Positions 10,086-50,642 of a DNA stretch of 56,151 bases are shown here, in pieces. The position numbers were made by a program, and so were the translations under genes. The notes under the pieces are model-generated. The model saw only the letters and a program-made list of their open reading frames with translations, did no database searches and had not been told where the DNA came from. Origin of the DNA: Alphaproteobacteria bacterium (GTDB lineage Bacteria; Pseudomonadota; Alphaproteobacteria; RF32; CAG-239); NCBI GenBank assembly GCA_017961285.1, contig JAGCXO010000005.1, positions 1-56,151 of the forward strand. Reading direction: 5' to 3'. Within the stretch, counting starts at the first letter, position 1, and each line of letters starts with the position of its first letter.

Positions 10086-12956
10086 ATGAAGCTTGTATTA
10101 AAATTGTTATTATTGAGCATCATACTTATATCAACAAACCTATCTGCCCAAGAAAACGTCTCAACACTTTCTTCCACCACTCAAGAAACAACTGAAAATA
10201 AGTGGTTGTTTGATCTAAAATGGTGGAAAAGAGCAACTCCGCAAGATGTTGAAACAATCATAAACAACGGAGCCTATGCCGATGCGGAAAGCGATTATGG
10301 CGGTTATACCCCTCTGATACTTGCCGCTCAAAACAATAACAATCCGAAAGTTATAGAAACACTCATAAAAAACGGCGCAAATGTTAATGGAAAAAACGAA
10401 GAAGGAGTAACTGCTCTAATGATGGCTGTAGCTTCCGGCAACAATCCTGAAATTACAGAAACTCTCATTAAAAACGGTGCTGATGTCAATGCAAAAAGCA
10501 AATATGATCAAACACCCCTAATGTTTGCAACCTCAAAACAAAAAACACCAGTCGAAAAGTTTGCAGTTATCCCTAACAACTCGGAGATCGACACCATAAA
10601 CGCACAAATTGCAGAAACGCAACTCAAAAACATAAACCTGCTGATCCAAAACAAAGCCGATATCAATGCCAAAAACACTTCTGGAGTGAGCGCATTGATG
10701 TATGCTGCATTTGAGAATAACAACCTTGAAGTTATCGAAACACTCATCAAACATGGTGCCGATGTCAACGCCACAGATATGGATGGCGAAAATGCCCTGA
10801 TGTCAGCAGCTTTTCAAAACGACAATCCGCAAATTATTGAAACACTCATCAAACACGGCGCCGATGTCAATGCCAAAGACAATAACGGCTATACAGCTTT
10901 GTTAAAAGCAGCCTCTGCCAATACCAATCCACAAGTTATCGAAACACTCATCAAAAATGGTGCCGACATTAACATAACCGGAAAAAACGGAGAAACTCCT
11001 TTAATATTGGCGGCATCCTCCAACCCTGCTTTTGCCATGCCCACACAATTCAAACGCGGAGCCGGCAAAGATACTGACATATGGCTTGGATTACTTGGAA
11101 TGATGGCAGTTTCTCTTTCTGATGAGGATAATCCCGAACAACTCAAAGCGAAAATAAGCATAATAGAAAACCTTATCAATCACGGTATTGATGTAAATGC
11201 CCAAGACAACAACGGACAAACAGCCCTGATGTATGCCGCCTCATTTACACAAAATCCCGAAGTTATCGAAACTCTCCTCAAAAACGGTGCTGATATAAAT
11301 GCAAAAGACAAAACCGGACACACAGCTCTAATGGCTGCGGCAAAACATACCGAAAACCCGCAAATTATTGAAACACTCATCAAACACGGTGCCGATATCA
11401 ACGCCAAAACCGAAAGCGGCAAAACAGCTTTTATGTATGCCGCAAAGAATAAAAAAGCTGCCATTTTGGAAACATTCACAAAATACACAAAAGATGCCGA
11501 TATAAAAGAAATCAGCGATGGAGAAAATTTGATAAAAATTGCCGGCACCACCAATGATGTTGAAATTATAGAAAATATGATAAAAAACGGAGCTGACGTC
11601 AATGCCAAAGATGAAATAGGAAAAACAGCTTTGATGACTGCCGCACAATTTAGCAATTTCGCTGCCGTTGAAACGCTCATCAAACATGGTGCTGATGTCA
11701 ATGCCGGAGACAATAACAAGCATACTGCATTATTCTATGCAAACCGAGCAGAAATTGTTGAAATCCTCATCAAACATGGAGCAGACGTCAACGCAGTTGC
11801 CGAATTTGGCAGAACCGTTCTTTTATATTCAACAAATAAAAGAGCGGATGTTATCGAAGCACTCATCAAAAACGGGGCTGATGTCAATGCAAGAGACGGC
11901 AATAATAATACAATTTTAATGAATGCTATAAGTAATGGACATGAACATGCAATTCTCCCACTTCTCAAACACGGCGCAGACATCAATGCCAAAGGTGATG
12001 GAGATTGGACAGCTTTAATGAGCGCTGTGCATAACAATAATCAGAAACTTGTTGAAATACTCATTGAACATGGCGCAGATGTCAATGCCAAAAATAATGA
12101 GGGTAGAACAGCATTAGATGATGCCCTAAACCAATATAATAAAGGTTATATCAAAAGCCCAATCATTGTCGAAACTCTCATCAAAAACGGAGCAAAAGAC
12201 AAAGATGGCAATGTTCCGACTATAACATCCAATAATCCTCAAGAAACAGCCCTCAATGAGTGGCCGTCCGAGTTAAACTCACCCTTTTATTATAAATGGT
12301 GGAAAAAAGCAACGCCGCAAGATATAGAAACACGCATCAAAAACGGAGCAGACATAAATGCCAAAGAAAACCCTCTAAAATTAGCAATAGAATATAATAA
12401 AAACCCGGCAGTTACCGAAATGCTCATCAAGCATGGTGCTAATTTATCAAGCATGTCAATTTTTTATGCCGCACTTTCAAACAAAAACCTCGAAATTTTA
12501 GAAACTCTTATCAAGCATGGAGCTGATGTCAATTTTAAAGATAATGACGGAGAAACTCCCCTAATGCATGCTGTTAAGAACCCTCAAGCTACTGAAATAC
12601 TCATCAAACATGGCGCTGATTTAAATGCAAAAGACAAAGATGGAAATACTGCTTTAATACATGCAATAAAAAAGGGGAGATTCTCCAATCCCAATGTTGT
12701 AAAAATACTTCTTGAGCATGGTGCCGATATTAATGTCAAAAGCAATACAGGAAATGTTTTAGAGATTGCTGCTTTTAGCGGAAATTCGCAAGTGATAGAA
12801 ACACTACTTGAACACGGAGAAAATATCAATATAAACAACACCGACTTTTTTGATGCTCCACCTTTAATATTAGCAATAGTAAATGATGCAGTACCTGCTG
12901 ACACCATAGAAACTTTCATCAAACATGGTGCTGACGTTAATATAAAAAAAAAGTAA
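10086..12956 (+). CDS. Secreted ankyrin-repeat protein (long paralog); frameshifted C-terminus continues to 13143
   Basis: Signal peptide; more than 20 ankyrin repeats; ends abruptly at DVNIKKK* inside an A9 tract. Confidence 0.88.
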   Translation: MKLVLKLLLLSIILISTNLSAQENVSTLSSTTQETTENKWLFDLKWWKRATPQDVETIINNGAYADAESDYGGYTPLILAAQNNNNPKVIETLIKNGANVNGKNEEGVTALMMAVASGNNPEITETLIKNGADVNAKSKYDQTPLMFATSKQKTPVEKFAVIPNNSEIDTINAQIAETQLKNINLLIQNKADINAKNTSGVSALMYAAFENNNLEVIETLIKHGADVNATDMDGENALMSAAFQNDNPQIIETLIKHGADVNAKDNNGYTALLKAASANTNPQVIETLIKNGADINITGKNGETPLILAASSNPAFAMPTQFKRGAGKDTDIWLGLLGMMAVSLSDEDNPEQLKAKISIIENLINHGIDVNAQDNNGQTALMYAASFTQNPEVIETLLKNGADINAKDKTGHTALMAAAKHTENPQIIETLIKHGADINAKTESGKTAFMYAAKNKKAAILETFTKYTKDADIKEISDGENLIKIAGTTNDVEIIENMIKNGADVNAKDEIGKTALMTAAQFSNFAAVETLIKHGADVNAGDNNKHTALFYANRAEIVEILIKHGADVNAVAEFGRTVLLYSTNKRADVIEALIKNGADVNARDGNNNTILMNAISNGHEHAILPLLKHGADINAKGDGDWTALMSAVHNNNQKLVEILIEHGADVNAKNNEGRTALDDALNQYNKGYIKSPIIVETLIKNGAKDKDGNVPTITSNNPQETALNEWPSELNSPFYYKWWKKATPQDIETRIKNGADINAKENPLKLAIEYNKNPAVTEMLIKHGANLSSMSIFYAALSNKNLEILETLIKHGADVNFKDNDGETPLMHAVKNPQATEILIKHGADLNAKDKDGNTALIHAIKKGRFSNPNVVKILLEHGADINVKSNTGNVLEIAAFSGNSQVIETLLEHGENININNTDFFDAPPLILAIVNDAVPADTIETFIKHGADVNIKKK

Positions 12957-33449: not shown

Positions 33450-34409
33450 CTATTCCGGCCTATACGTAAAATATCTCGGCAACTCATAAACCACAATTCG
33501 GTTAATATTCTCAAATTGCGTGCTCTTGCTGCCATAAACAATTTTTCCCGAATTATAAGGCATTTTTCCGTGACGTGTCTGATATATTTGCAAATCCTGC
33601 AAATTCATAAATATACCATTATCAAAAAACACATTCCACCCATATGGAGAAGCCACTTTCACATGTATCACCCTAATGGTTTTATCCGTATCCAAAAACT
33701 CCGGCATATTATCAACCGAAAGTTCATATGTCTTATCATCAAGCCTTCCGCTATACCAACGCAATATATCTTCAGATTTTTCCGATATCCCTTGCAATTT
33801 CAAATCTTTTTCCTCAATCACCAAAGGATTCATATGAATCATTGGCTGATGAGAGGCACTCTCCTCAATCTGCACATCTTCCACCGCCGCATTTTTCGAA
33901 CTCTCGACAATTTCTTCCGCCTCAACAACATCATCAACAACCGGCTCTTCCGGCTCAACAGGCACTTCTTCCACCGGCTCGGCAACAGAAACATCCTCCA
34001 CCGGCTCGGCAACAGAAACATCCTCCACCGGCTCGGCAACAGAAACATCCTCCACCGGCTCCAACTCTTCCTCAACAACGTTCTTAACCTGTTTTTCTTT
34101 AGCTTTAGAAACATTTTTATTAATCGGAGAAACTTTTCCACTTCTCGCCTCTTGAAAAGATTTTAAGGCAGAATCCAAATCTTCCAATTTAAAATCCTTA
34201 AAATCAGCTACAGGATCCATATCATCAGGTTCATCAATAAATTCTTCCTTTTTCTCTTCCACAACAGGAGAAAACTCAATAACCGGTTCGTCTTGCATAA
34301 AACTATCCAAATCCGAAACCTTAGAGTCTCCAAAATCTATTTTTGTATCCTCTTGTGTAGAGCCCAAAAGCTTATCAAAATCTATATCCTGCTCTTGCTT
34401 ATTATCCAT
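33450..34409 (-). CDS. Hypothetical highly acidic protein with internal repeats
   Basis: D/E-rich N-half, globular-looking C-terminal ~110 aa; ATG at 34409. Confidence 0.7.
   Translation of the reverse strand: MDNKQEQDIDFDKLLGSTQEDTKIDFGDSKVSDLDSFMQDEPVIEFSPVVEEKKEEFIDEPDDMDPVADFKDFKLEDLDSALKSFQEARSGKVSPINKNVSKAKEKQVKNVVEEELEPVEDVSVAEPVEDVSVAEPVEDVSVAEPVEEVPVEPEEPVVDDVVEAEEIVESSKNAAVEDVQIEESASHQPMIHMNPLVIEEKDLKLQGISEKSEDILRWYSGRLDDKTYELSVDNMPEFLDTDKTIRVIHVKVASPYGWNVFFDNGIFMNLQDLQIYQTRHGKMPYNSGKIVYGSKSTQFENINRIVVYELPRYFTYRPE
33971..34061. repeat. 27-bp coding tandem repeat x3.4
   Basis: CCACCGGCTCGGCAACAGAAACATCCT repeated exactly; encodes EPVEDVSVA. Confidence 0.95.
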
Positions 34410-34485
34410 TTCAAATTCCTCAATCAAAAAAACATTTTTCAAAAAATATATTCACTAACGAAAAACATATTTTCTTATGTGAGTG

Positions 34486-46877: not shown

Positions 46878-46896
46878 CTAAAACTGTCTAAACAAA

Positions 46897-47352
46897 TTAG
46901 TTAGAAGCTTTAACAACAGTTACAGCGCGACGGTTTTGAGCCCAAGCAGCTTCGTTGCTACCCAAAACAGCCGGTCTTTCTTTACCATAAGAAATGGTAT
47001 CGATTCTGTTAGCTGCAATGCCGTTAGCTACCAAATAAGATTTTACGGCATTTGCACGACGCTCACCAAGAGCCAAGTTGTATTCTCTGGTACCGCGTTC
47101 ATCGCAATAACCTTGAACGATAACATTAACTCTCTCATGGTTCTTCAACCATTTAACTTGAGTATCAAGAGCCTCTTCAGCATTGTTGCTCAAAGAAGAG
47201 CTGTCAAAAGCGAAGAATACTTTATCTTCGGCATTAGCCATAAAGTTACGGGCATCTCTAGAGTCGCACTCGCTGCCGCCAAACCATTCACTGGTTGTAG
47301 AACAAGCAGACAACAAAGCTACGAAACAGAACAGACCTAAAAGTTTTTTCAT
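46897..47352 (-). CDS. pal: Peptidoglycan-associated lipoprotein
   Basis: LSAC lipobox, GYCDERGTREYNLALGERRA, SYGKERP, NRRA. Confidence 0.96.
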   Translation of the reverse strand: MKKLLGLFCFVALLSACSTTSEWFGGSECDSRDARNFMANAEDKVFFAFDSSSLSNNAEEALDTQVKWLKNHERVNVIVQGYCDERGTREYNLALGERRANAVKSYLVANGIAANRIDTISYGKERPAVLGSNEAAWAQNRRAVTVVKASN

Positions 47353-47547
47353 TTCATTTCTCCATATATGGTTTTAATATTTTAATCAAATACACTTGCT
47401 AAGTTAAGCAATAAGAATTAATTTTTCAATAACAAAATGCAAAAAAAACAAAAATTGTGATTTTTTATTTTTTTTGCGACACTATAATCGCATATATTCC
47501 TTAATTTTTTATCAAGATTTTTATTGTTCGTAACTTTTTCAGCCAAA

Positions 47548-47950
47548 GAGCTGTTACACGCGCTTTACAAAAAGTGCGGAGTATAGTTCAGATGGAGTTA
47601 AAATAAAAAAAGGGAAAATTCTAGTGTACAAAGAAGTACATGAATTTTCCCTTTTTGCGATTTTAGCTCTAGATGAGCTGTTATACGCACTTTACAAAAA
47701 GTGCGGAGAATAGTTCAGATAGAGTTAAAATAAAAAAAGGGAAAATTCTAGTGTACAAAGAAGTACATGAATTTTTCTTATTGAGTAATTTTAGTTCTAA
47801 ATGAGCTGTTACACGCGCTTTACAAAAAGTGCGGAGAATAGTTCAGATAGAGTTAAAATAAAAAAAGGGAAAATTCCAGTGTACAAAGAAGTACATGAAT
47901 TTTCCCTTTTTGCGATTTTAGCTCTAGATGAGCTGTTATACGCACTTTTT
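47548..47950. repeat. Tandem array of ~127-bp palindromic elements (3 full + partial)
   Basis: Units begin AAAAAGTGCGG at 47569, 47696, 47824; each is an imperfect inverted repeat centred on TGTAC-aaagaa-GTACA. Confidence 0.95.
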
Positions 47951-50642
47951 AGCAGGCTTTTTTGCAGCAGCAGCTAACATTTTCCTCTTGCTTGTCATTT
48001 TTATGACGAACCGCAGCTTGTGCAGCAGCCAAACGAGCTACCGGAACACGGAACGGAGAGCAAGAAACATAGTTCATGCCGCAAGTCTGGAAAAAGTCGA
48101 TAGATGCCGGATCACCGCCATGTTCACCGCAAACACCGAGCAAAATTTTCGGGTTTGATGAACGAGCCTTACAGCAAGCCATCTTGACCAACATACCAAC
48201 GCCCTCAACATCAATAGATGCAAAAGGATCGGCAACATAAACACCGCGAGCGCGATATTCATCCAAGATAGCACCGGTATCATCACGGCTCATACCGAGA
48301 GTTGTTTGTGTCAGGTCATTGGTACCAAAACCGAAGAACTCAGCAGATTGTGCCAACTCATCAGCCTTAAGGGCTGCACGCGGCAATTCAATCATTGAAC
48401 CAACTTCATATTTAACTTTCTTACCTTTCTCGGCAAAAACCTTCTCAGCAGTTGTATCGATAATATTCTTAACAATGTCGAGCTCTTTCTTGGAACCTGT
48501 CAAAGGAACTTCAATTTCCGGCATAACTTTAATACCGGCATCTGCGCATTCGATAGCGGCTTCCAAAATAGCTCTGGTCTGCATTTCGCAAATTTCCGGA
48601 TAAGTAATCGGCAAACGGCAACCACGGTGACCAAGCATCGGGTTAGCTTCATGCAAAGCATCTGCTCTGTTCTTAACCTGTTGCAAAGTCATACCCATTT
48701 TGTCGGCCAATTCTTGCATTTCGGCATCTGTGTGCGGCAAGAATTCATGAAGCGGAGGGTCTAACAAACGAATAACAACCGGCAGACCTTCCATAATTTT
48801 GAACAAGTCTTTGAAGTCTTGCTTTTGATACGGCAACAAACGAGCCAAAGCCTCACGGCGTCCGGCTTCATTGTCAGACAAAATCATTGCGCGCATATTC
48901 GGAATACGATCAGCATCAAAGAACATGTGCTCAGTTCTTGCCAAGCCGATTCCTTGTGCGCCGAAATCGCGAGCTTGTTGAGCATCTTTCGGAGTTTCGG
49001 CATTAGCGCGAACATCCATGGTTCTGATTTCATCAACCCAGCCCATCAATTTACCGAAGTTACCGCTGTTGGTATCGGCCTTAACTGTCGGAACTTGACC
49101 TTCAATAATCTGACCTTTACCGCCGTCAAGAGAAACCCAATCGCCCTCTTTGATAACCACGCCGGATTTTGTTGTCATTGTCTTGTCTTTGTAGCTGATA
49201 ACAATGTCATGTGAGCCCGAAACGCAAGGAGTTCCCATACCGCGGGCAACAACAGCTGCGTGAGATGTCATACCGCCGCGAGCCGTAATAACACCTTGAG
49301 AAGCATGCATACCGCCGATATCTTCCGGAGAAGTTTCGTTACGGATAAGAATAACTTTTTCGCCTTTGGCTGCCCAAGCTTCGGCATCTTCTGCGCAGAA
49401 TACTGCACGACCGACCGCAGCTCCAGGAGAAGCCGGAAGTCCGGTAGCAATAACATTTTTCTTTGCCTTTGGATCGAGCATCGGGTGCAACAATTGGTCT
49501 AATTGGTCAGCACCAACGCGCATAATAGCTTCTTCTTTGTTGAGCAAACCTTCTTCAACCATCTCAACAGCCATACGAACGGCAGCTTGAGCGGTGCGTT
49601 TACCGTTGCGGCATTGCAACATCCAAAGTTTGCCGTGCTCAATGGTAAATTCCATATCTTGCATATCTTTGTAGTGAGATTCCAAATTGTTGCGAACATC
49701 AACCAATTCTTTATACAAATTAGGCCATTTTTCTTCCAAAGATGTGCCGTCGCCTTTTGAGCCCATCGGTTGCGGAGTTCTAATACCGGCAACAACATCT
49801 TCACCTTGAGCATTAACCAAATATTCGCCGTAATATACGTTTTCACCGGTTGCAGGATCGCGCGAGAAGCAAACACCTGTTGCACAATCGTCACCGGCAT
49901 TACCGAATACCATGGTTTGAACGTTAACGGCAGTACCCCAGTCACCCGGAATGTTGTTCAATTTACGATAAGTAATGGCACGATCAACCATCCAAGAACC
50001 GAATACGGCACCGATTCCTGCCCACAATTGATCCCATGGATCTTGCGGAACAACTTTGCCGATTCTCTGACCGATTTCCTTATATTGAGCAACCAAAGCC
50101 TTCAAATCATCAGCAGTCAAATCTGTATCAGAGGTATAACCTTTGGACTTTTTCATATTTTCCAAGGCTTCTTCATACAATTCCAGGTCTGCACCCAAAA
50201 CAACATCAGAGAACATCTGCAAAAAACGACGATAAGAGTCATAAGCAAAACGCTCAGAACCCGATGCTTTTGCCAAAGCTTTAACTGTCTCGTCATTCAA
50301 ACCCAAGTTCAAAACCGTATCCATCATACCCGGCATTGAAACTCTTGCACCCGAACGAACGGAGAAAAGCAAAGGATTGTTGGCATCGGCAAACTTCTTG
50401 CCCATAATTTTCTCAACGCCGGCAACAGCCTCTTTTACCTGTTCTTTCAAATCTTCAGGATAAGTTTTATTGTTGTTGTAATAATATGTACAAACTTCTG
50501 TTGTAACCGTAAATCCCGGAGGTACCGGCAAACCTACTTTGTTCATTTCAGCAAGGTTTGCACCTTTACCGCCGAGAAGATTGCGCATGGAGGCATCGCC
50601 CTCGGCTTTGCCGTTTCCAAATGTATATACCCATTTACTCAT
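47949..50642 (-). CDS. ppdK: Pyruvate, phosphate dikinase
   Basis: LLGGKGANL, SVRSGA, GGMTSHAAVVAR, RLLDPPLHEF, GTNDLTQ, CGEHGG. Confidence 0.98.
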   Translation of the reverse strand: MSKWVYTFGNGKAEGDASMRNLLGGKGANLAEMNKVGLPVPPGFTVTTEVCTYYYNNNKTYPEDLKEQVKEAVAGVEKIMGKKFADANNPLLFSVRSGARVSMPGMMDTVLNLGLNDETVKALAKASGSERFAYDSYRRFLQMFSDVVLGADLELYEEALENMKKSKGYTSDTDLTADDLKALVAQYKEIGQRIGKVVPQDPWDQLWAGIGAVFGSWMVDRAITYRKLNNIPGDWGTAVNVQTMVFGNAGDDCATGVCFSRDPATGENVYYGEYLVNAQGEDVVAGIRTPQPMGSKGDGTSLEEKWPNLYKELVDVRNNLESHYKDMQDMEFTIEHGKLWMLQCRNGKRTAQAAVRMAVEMVEEGLLNKEEAIMRVGADQLDQLLHPMLDPKAKKNVIATGLPASPGAAVGRAVFCAEDAEAWAAKGEKVILIRNETSPEDIGGMHASQGVITARGGMTSHAAVVARGMGTPCVSGSHDIVISYKDKTMTTKSGVVIKEGDWVSLDGGKGQIIEGQVPTVKADTNSGNFGKLMGWVDEIRTMDVRANAETPKDAQQARDFGAQGIGLARTEHMFFDADRIPNMRAMILSDNEAGRREALARLLPYQKQDFKDLFKIMEGLPVVIRLLDPPLHEFLPHTDAEMQELADKMGMTLQQVKNRADALHEANPMLGHRGCRLPITYPEICEMQTRAILEAAIECADAGIKVMPEIEVPLTGSKKELDIVKNIIDTTAEKVFAEKGKKVKYEVGSMIELPRAALKADELAQSAEFFGFGTNDLTQTTLGMSRDDTGAILDEYRARGVYVADPFASIDVEGVGMLVKMACCKARSSNPKILLGVCGEHGGDPASIDFFQTCGMNYVSCSPFRVPVARLAAAQAAVRHKNDKQEENVSCCCKKAC

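Follow-up and report, generated by a model that had tools for sequence, protein, structure and literature searches.

The 56,151-nt stretch of DNA analysed here (the window), contig JAGCXO010000005.1 of the alphaproteobacterial assembly GCA_017961285.1, contains at positions 47548–47948 an array of 127-bp units that directly follows the stop codon of ppdK, the gene for pyruvate phosphate dikinase. The array is an ordinary member of a family of imperfect palindromic repeats of ~125 nt, not a private oddity of this genome, and in this family the fold is conserved rather than the sequence. We consider it probable that the array consists of three and a fraction copies of a non-coding, non-autonomous, polar palindromic repeat similar to the REP and ERIC elements, read into the 3' end of ppdK in the weaker-folding sense. 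Put most cautiously, it is a polar palindrome of the REP/ERIC kind whose sequence is new and whose placement rules are stricter. The family is large and apparently undescribed: a search of the literature, largely at abstract level, found no published description of it.

The units and their repeat family

Tandem Repeats Finder described 47548–47948 as 3.1 copies of a 127-bp period (90% matches, score 693) and reported no other such long-period array in the window. Read as hairpins, the units begin at 47569, 47696 and 47824 on the + strand, and the stems that had been listed in an earlier sequence-only reading of this DNA are exactly those of the minimum-energy folds of all three units. Unit 1 (47569–47695), a 127-nt hairpin, and unit 3 (47824–47950) belong to one type (A), and unit 2 (47696–47823) to another (B), with a divergent right arm (TTTTTCTTATTGAG..., CGCGC). 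Identities amount to 122 of 127 positions for units 1 and 3, 117 of 129 for units 1 and 2 and 116 of 129 for units 2 and 3. Next to unit 1 lies a truncated fourth unit (47548–47568, + strand), the last 21 nt of a B-type right arm with the same CGCGC signature as the arm of unit 2; in the sense of ppdK this stump represents the first ~20 nt of a unit, and it gave a partial nhmmer match (47525–47567, model positions 84–126) with an E-value of 0.099. The unit identities and the B-type stump bear out the suggestion that right arms alternate as B-A-B-A with a higher-order period of 255 bp. A second folding register at the junctions, which had also been pointed out, does exist but is trivial, since in any tandem palindrome the right arm of a unit can pair with the left arm of its neighbour. 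At the ppdK end of the array, the last bases of unit 3 overlap the stop codon of the gene (47949–47951, − strand). Read in the ppdK sense, the sequence runs ...GCCTGCTAA and then AAAGTGCG, the unit beginning directly after the TAA.

It is extremely unlikely that a short-read assembler inflated a single unit into this array. The genome (1.196 Mb, 92% complete, 39% G+C) is a draft in 51 contigs, and repeats are hard to assemble, but the units differ from one another by 5 to 13 differences, arrays of two to four units recur in many independent genomes, and the junction types are all bridged by contigs of two DNA sequencing runs (47200–47577, 47664–47719, 47690–47775, 47746–47832 and 47874–48296), one of which may be the source sample. 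The shortness of the contigs leaves room for further repeats of the 255-bp period.

A covariance model of the unit (R1; 128 positions, 52 pairs) was built from 87 distinct full-length copies, the three units of the window being among the 87 rows. On the + strand it scored units 3, 1 and 2 at 134.9, 122.3 and 115.2 bits (E-values from 1e-26 to 4e-22), as against 63.4, 45.8 and 35 bits on the − strand. Related copies were found by BLAST and nhmmer, independently of R1, in 17 of 24 genomes of the genus. R1 matched 24 of 28 other genus genomes and, with at most 22 candidates scored per genome, 134 of the 149 genomes that represent its family, one of small-genome, uncultured gut Alphaproteobacteria; all 20 genera sampled are covered. 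Among other families of the class, represented by one genome each, 8 of 150 had matches, all with weak scores, and one of these eight is an unpublished genome. Fuller scoring of two copy-rich genomes yielded 61 matches in G080 and 83 in G130, a few places being counted on both strands, and some genomes of 1.5 Mb carry ~60–80 copies. A pattern scan of one genome per species returned at least 122 stretches; among those listed, nearly all were in records of uncultured Alphaproteobacteria, 'Azospirillum sp.' or metagenome-assembled genomes (MAGs) of Rhodospirillales, the MAGs coming from human, deer, rabbit and ruminant guts. Thus, of the two options of the sequence-only reading, the head-to-tail amplified palindrome fits: the family is dispersed, head-to-tail arrays are common in it and the array next to ppdK is an ordinary local amplification.

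The genome of the window (G000) holds only this array and one degenerate copy (contig 22, 27913–28020; L003:1446–1557). The latter has kept the inner hairpin with its T-run and the right arm and has lost the GTAC tip and most of the left arm (E-values of 5.9e-8 with nhmmer and 0.74 with R1). No Rfam 15 model matched at its gathering score, the best match over the array being MIR841 (29.6 bits vs a gathering score of 200); blastn (word size 11, E-value 1e-5) found no match to the array in 5,426 Escherichia coli genomes (20,395 records), and there was none in plasmids and phages either. In G080 (L189, L191, L193 ... L215, at ~1355–1730) the unit is the core of a composite repeat of 300–375 bp with flanks conserved on both sides, and further repeat modules near these composites form a mosaic like that of BIMEs.

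On a structure-blind MAFFT alignment of the 87 copies (A1), RNAalifold predicted 34 pairs, 30 of which had changed on both sides. Standard pairs occupied 94.6% of the cells compared with 75.4% in 500 shuffles, none of which reached the real alignment in any of five measures, and sliding the partner by 1–3 columns lowered the pairing to 29–46%. The covariation among homologues on which the sequence-only reading depended is therefore present. The unit is an imperfect hairpin of ~125 nt whose variable, covarying stems are split by conserved purine–purine internal loops (GAG/ATA or GAT/AGA, then GAT/AGA) and which is closed by a conserved tip, GTGTAC-loop-GTACAT, with a G.U pair and a 2-nt bulge. 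The stem of this tip (GTGTAC/GTACAT) is nearly invariant (85 of 87 copies), and the loop positions stay purine–purine or Watson–Crick on the well-folding strand, which is the equivalent of the + strand of the window. That strand has G.U and G.A pairs where the gene-sense strand has C.A, C.U and U.C mismatches. One copy (L012:1494–1620, genome G005) is a perfect Watson–Crick palindrome, its right arm an exact complement of the left; the purine loops and GTTATAC motif usual in other copies are missing, which gives the impression that one arm was made as a copy of its partner.

Strand asymmetry, placement and polarity

Folded as RNA, the whole array reaches −182.2 kcal/mol on the + strand (z −21.5; none of 100 shuffles was as good) and −123.5 kcal/mol on the − strand (z −11.9). 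The energies of units 1, 2 and 3 are −62.1, −45.2 and −64.6 kcal/mol on the + strand vs −40.7, −22.8 and −46.0 kcal/mol on the − strand; with DNA parameters they are −30.8, −15.7 and −36.7 vs −24.2, −10.1 and −28.6. The + strand folds have 5, 8 and 4 G-U pairs, respectively, and those of the − strand have none. The non-Watson–Crick places of the + strand are rich in purines: GAG lies opposite ATA in loop 1 and GAT opposite AGA in loop 2, the latter forming a tandem G.A/A.G beside a U-A, and at the foot of the tip a G.U pair stands beside the 2-nt bulge. On the − strand the same places read as C.U, U.C and C.A. The + strand thus folds far better than the − strand, and the bias holds throughout the family. 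Among 135 distinct copies aligned by R1 (alignment A2, opposite-strand doubles removed), 128 fold better on the strand equal to the + strand of the window; by source, this is so for 40 of 42 copies in G130, 17 of 17 in G080 and 68 of 73 in other genomes. The mean energies over the 135 copies are −56.7 kcal/mol on the well-folding strand and −44.6 kcal/mol on the other; composition-matched shuffles differ by only 3.9, which leaves a corrected strand difference of −8.2, negative in 121 of the 135 copies.

Over the 34 reliable pairs there are 254 G.T cells vs 56 A.C cells, and standard pairs make up 94.6% on the well-folding strand vs 87.9% on the other. The statement that most stem mismatches are G-T on the + strand and A-C on the − strand is therefore correct in direction, but most of the excess comes from three constitutive wobble positions; with these three columns set aside, the counts are 85 vs 51. 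Since these columns supply most of the G.T excess, the asymmetry is mainly a matter of fixed architecture (three wobble positions and the purine loops), and a general excess contributes modestly. It follows that whatever selects the fold treats the two strands differently. Which of them matters cannot be told from the asymmetry alone, because G.U and G.A pairs on one strand and fixed open pyrimidine loops on the other are two views of a single feature of the sequence, and the pattern can equally mean that the − strand, which is the mRNA sense, must stay open at fixed places. Selection of the structure as single-stranded + strand RNA or DNA, as had been put forward from the sequence, does not follow.

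The position of the units relative to genes is narrowly defined. Of 83 scorable copies, 73 have an open reading frame (ORF) of the opposite strand directly at the 3' end of the well-folding strand (the other 10 adjoin a same-strand ORF, and 8 of 91 copies were unscorable), so that a gene-sense transcript would carry the weaker-folding version. The distance between unit and ORF is often 0–4 nt, or the ORF enters the unit by 1–23 nt; the start of a copy falls on the stop codon of a core gene or a few bases inside it. The genes preceding 21 sites in G130 encode, among others, H+-pyrophosphatase, IF-2 (infB), FtsK, PNPase (pnp), GroEL, RuvX, LepA, Ddl, MreB, RodA, AtpB, SmpB, FtsH, SSB, a sigma factor, XerC/D, AcrB and FadL, which are core genes and thus rule out gene cassettes.

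The copies are also consistent in their orientation with respect to replication. In 371 kb of G130, all 51 hits (~31 sites) are opposite in sign to the GC skew of their contig. There were no hits on the + strand and 12 on the − strand of contig C2 (skew +0.139; crude ORFs +/−, 67/42), 0 and 15 on C5 (+0.109; 41/51), 0 and 11 on C8 (+0.144; 39/23), 9 and 0 on C13 (−0.139; 8/25) and 0 and 4 on the tail of C1 (+0.116; 17/27); summed over these contigs, crude ORFs number 189 on the leading vs 151 on the lagging strand. The same polarity was found at 57 of 61 loci from many genomes and in 19 of 20 elements from 13 regions of G054, G074 and G078. The window array behaves as a member of the family in both respects: unit 3 ends on the ppdK stop codon, and the well-folding strand is the C-rich strand, the + strand of the window having a GC skew of −0.238 throughout. 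With the G-rich strand taken as the leading strand, the well-folding strand has the lagging-strand sequence, i.e. it serves as the leading-strand template. Mutation bias was considered as a cause of the wobble asymmetry and rejected: the bias of the leading strand is from C to T, by deamination, and predicts G.T pairs on the opposite strand. The strand pattern would thus run against mutation pressure.

That last point could be taken to favour selection on genome stability or on the traffic between replication and transcription as the source of both polarity and asymmetry, which we nevertheless regard as improbable. If stability were at stake, the survivors would be those copies that lack the more stable hairpin on the exposed lagging-strand template; if traffic were, the well-folding strand would form a hairpin that stops antisense, head-on transcription into leading-strand genes. 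The weaker hairpin does always lie on the G-rich strand, the lagging-strand template as parental DNA, and selection would be needed to place G.T pairs where deamination does not put them. There is also a precedent, in that passages of a study of E. coli describe hairpins formed by long palindromes on the lagging-strand template and cut by SbcCD (PMC3315005). The same passages report, however, that an 85-bp palindrome is tolerated and that SbcCD cleaves only with palindromes longer than natural ones, so that a 127-nt imperfect hairpin may face little such pressure (PMC3315005). As for traffic, in the main G130 subfamily no U-run follows the well-folding hairpin, which is hence no obvious antisense terminator, and both versions leave the conserved sequence of tip and loops unexplained.

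Very unlikely, too, is the other option of the sequence-only reading, an independent + strand non-coding RNA array, convergent with ppdK and processed into units of ~127 nt. The better fold of the + strand, its G.U and tandem G.A pairs, which are typical of structured RNA, and the covariation would all suit it. However, there is no sigma-70-like promoter on the + strand at 47353–47547 (the terminator rule of the promoter/terminator scan is blind to bulged long hairpins), the best Rfam matches are to plant microRNA models far below threshold, and no RNA contig covers the array, although this is a weak argument as the contigs come from relatives. Across 107 sites the sequence upstream of the + strand start varies by subfamily, and where copies within G130 and G080 share a stretch there, it is left over from an older unit or belongs to a larger repeat. 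Finally, orientation follows the neighbouring gene and, across whole contigs, the replication strand, and we know of no RNA gene family that does the latter.

Origin of the copies and known repeat systems

The history of the array can be followed at the ppdK stop codon, which, together with the tail of the protein (mostly CCCKKAC), is kept at all 26 loci of the genus. Behind it, seven genomes of the genus carry one to three full units of differing subfamilies, four carry half units, in which the gene-side arm and the inner hairpin with its T-run remain and the far arm is lost, and further ones carry a plain terminator hairpin alone, two of them with remains of the gene-side arm. An A unit followed by a B unit with the same B-type arm is also found after ppdK in G020, G016 and G042, so that the A-B-A-(B) order of the window is best read as an old A-B pair at the ppdK stop that was probably duplicated to give A-B-A and the B stump. 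Among the 107 sites, 80 are single, 22 double, four triple and one quadruple. At other loci the stop codon and a full unit are often separated by the truncated start of an older unit, and in G130 the unit stands between the stop codon and a plain terminator hairpin, with a short conserved linker before the hairpin. In several genomes of the genus a second family of long-hairpin repeats, with different arms, lies beside the units behind ppdK (L168 ~1500–1630 in G013; also L162, L163, L164, L170 and L171); its tip, CATGTAC-GTTT-ATGTACAC, is related to that of the unit.

On the reading that we prefer, a repeat of the REP/ERIC kind, the tail of the ppdK message would consist of the units, transcribed in their weaker-folding sense, and the inner hairpin with its run of seven U could act as a transcript-end hairpin and terminator. 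New copies would be produced by a process that handles one DNA strand, which would explain both the conserved differences between left and right arms and the strict replication polarity, and arrays might arise by unequal recombination between neighbouring units. A role at the 3' end of ppdK, where the read-through units would end or protect the transcript, is suggested by their position and by the series of half units and terminators behind this gene.

Several observations weigh against this reading. Two RNA runs, with contigs of relatives that are 90–95% alike, cover the pal-like gene next to the array and parts of ppdK and none of the array, so that they are silent on its expression and strand. 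The absence of a U-run after the inner hairpin in the main G130 subfamily means that a terminator role is not general, and a 3' hairpin role alone leaves unexplained the mismatches that pair on the other strand. Polarity to replication is confounded with gene orientation: if the elements are drawn to core or highly expressed genes, which tend to lie on the leading strand, gene polarity alone could give much of the pattern; moreover, placement and ORF strand counts rest on crude longest-ORF gene calls. Lastly, no mobilising enzyme was found in G000 and the five copy-rich genomes checked for Y1 transposases.

The search for such an enzyme included several kinds of candidates. The Y1 transposase domain (PF01797) is absent from G000 and from four of the five copy-rich genomes (G130, G080, G137 and G060); the single PF01797 gene, in G067, has no unit within 1.5 kb. 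G060, which has at least 21 copies, encodes only two tyrosine recombinases, both XerC/D-like, and no extra integrase. A constant target duplication was not seen in the flanks of the 107 sites, and no pair of arms 0.5–3 kb apart around a gene, as expected of a parent insertion sequence, was found in the 371 kb of G130. The searches for a Y1 transposase, an integron and a parent insertion sequence were thus all negative, results that are weak because MAG bins often miss mobile genes. Copying does appear to be recent in G130, as near-identical copies (94–97% over ~140 nt) occupy different loci there. At a recent copy in that genome, species of its genus are 64–78% alike in DNA and the spacer is rearranged, leaving no clean pair of a filled and an empty site. 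A metagenome scan with the ppdK C-terminus, aimed at copy number between strains, gave only three close loci, with protein identities of 95, 94 and 91%, and the species of the window was not among them.

The near-identical copies also bear on an alternative that is possible but unlikely, namely that the units are strand-selective single-stranded DNA substrates, comparable to attC sites, the ends of IS200/IS605 elements or the folded CTX phage site, which an enzyme copies or moves at the replication fork. The unpaired and purine–purine positions would then mark the strand, the element would be essentially selfish and any effect on transcript ends secondary. The arm differences, conserved family-wide while the stems covary, the strict polarity to GC skew, the near-identical copies at different loci of G130 and the persistence of the asymmetry with DNA energy parameters all agree with this, as do the truncated older units beside full ones, which look as if copies land in or near earlier copies. 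A precedent is supplied by IS608 and ISDra2, which are established to transpose as single strands in a manner coupled to the lagging-strand template (PMC6006769). On the other hand, a Y1 transposase is absent from five of six genomes and has no elements near it in the sixth, the preceding genes are core genes and not an integron-type context, and the well-folding strand, by the strand logic inferred above, is on the leading-strand template, whereas IS200/IS605 elements act on the lagging-strand template; the absence of an enzyme says little either way, as MAG bins often lack mobile genes. In its most specific form, which we likewise think rather unlikely, the arm differences would be the strand label for a single-stranded DNA step, and the family would represent mobile hairpins of a new class whose movement is coupled to the replication fork. 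Copying to the stop codons of co-oriented genes would be the work of an enzyme other than Y1 or an integron integrase (host XerCD or an unrecognised protein) that recognises the well-folding strand on the leading-strand template.

The REP/ERIC-like repeat that we favour can be set beside several known systems. ERIC (or IRU) elements are non-protein-coding imperfect palindromes of ~127 bp. They number in the tens to hundreds, lie behind genes in intergenic DNA that is transcribed, and fold as long hairpins in the transcript; E. coli genomes carry copies. The units resemble them in size, palindromic structure, position behind genes, copy number, long hairpin and absence of protein, but have no blastn match in the E. 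coli genomes, belong to another bacterial class, lie flush with the stop codon, are strictly polar and often head to tail, and have strands that fold unequally. REP elements and the BIMEs and REPINs built on them are described as extragenic palindromes at gene ends that occur in clusters and in several subfamilies per genome and are thought to be handled as single-stranded hairpins (PMC3116915, PMC6006769). Palindromes at gene ends, subfamilies and clusters are thus common to both. REPs, however, are short (20–40 nt) and form inverted pairs, unlike the present units of ~125 nt in head-to-tail order. Unlike in REP/RAYT systems, no Y1 transposase is flanked by units, the sole Y1 gene (in G067) having none beside it. 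A REP near a stop codon is reported to stall ribosomes.

The attC sites of integrons are imperfect palindromes of 57–141 nt directly behind an ORF, with conserved structure rather than sequence; the strand complementary to the gene folds and is used, and the core is GTTRRRY. The units share with them the palindrome behind an ORF and the primacy of structure, and their right arm often has GTTATAC, GTTAGAC or GTTAGGC, which are similar to GTTRRRY. However, the other arm has GGAGAAT or GGATAGT, which is not the complement and leaves a 3x3 purine loop unpaired, the preceding genes are scattered core housekeeping genes (ppdK, infB, pnp, groEL, ftsH) and not cassettes, and G060 is without an extra integrase. 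Rickettsia palindromic elements (RPE) and miniature inverted-repeat transposable elements (MITEs) such as Correia elements are non-autonomous palindromic repeats of 100–150 bp, found in reduced genomes of Alphaproteobacteria or in other genomes, which may enter reading frames. The units are palindromic and non-autonomous as well, and in some copies an ORF extends up to 23 nt into the unit; the differences from MITEs are the lack of a consistent target duplication at the 107 sites and of a parent insertion sequence in 371 kb of G130.

If the preferred reading is true, an abundant uncultured family of gut bacteria marks many of its core gene ends with one strand-polar hairpin. For annotation, such units matter in that they interrupt assemblies, lengthen or replace stop codons and can pass for RNA genes; in strain typing, array length and subfamily vary between species at the same locus. 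For repeat biology, the family combines strict replication polarity with a difference between strands that is part of the palindrome itself, and does so without a transposase of the REP type. It offers a natural case for how such repeats copy and for whether cells select the foldable strand of a palindrome.

The ppdK locus and other features of the window

The array lies between the stop codon of ppdK (47949–50642, − strand; 897 aa; Pfam domains PPDK_N, PEP-utilizers and PEP-utilizers_C) and the promoter side of a gene for a Pal/OmpA-family lipoprotein (46897–47352, − strand; Pfam OmpA), which is followed by ybgF-like, tilS and ftsH genes. A promoter-like site for the pal-like gene, predicted by consensus match only (TTAACT-17-TAAAAT, 9 of 12 positions; 47379–47407, − strand), is the far limit of the 3' untranslated stretch of ppdK. 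In most genomes of the genus, 26 in all (loci L161–L186), the dikinase keeps a cysteine-rich tail (47952–47975, − strand) that reads CCCKKAC or CCCKKAS; the tail differs in more distant ppdK genes.

The 3' end of the pal-like gene (46890–47008, − strand) matches the CpoB/ybgF thermometer of Rfam below threshold (RF02782; 33.4 bits vs a gathering score of 51, E-value 7e-4) over the full model length. This match precedes the ybgF-like TPR gene, a fitting genomic context for such a thermometer. Other repeats in the window lie within ORFs. An ORF of 956 aa (10086–12956, + strand) has 102-bp periodic repeats at 10338–10523 and 11252–11446, which correspond to units of 34 residues, ankyrin-like by their period, and the ORF at 33450–34442 (− strand) contains 3.9 copies of a 27-bp tandem repeat (33956–34061).

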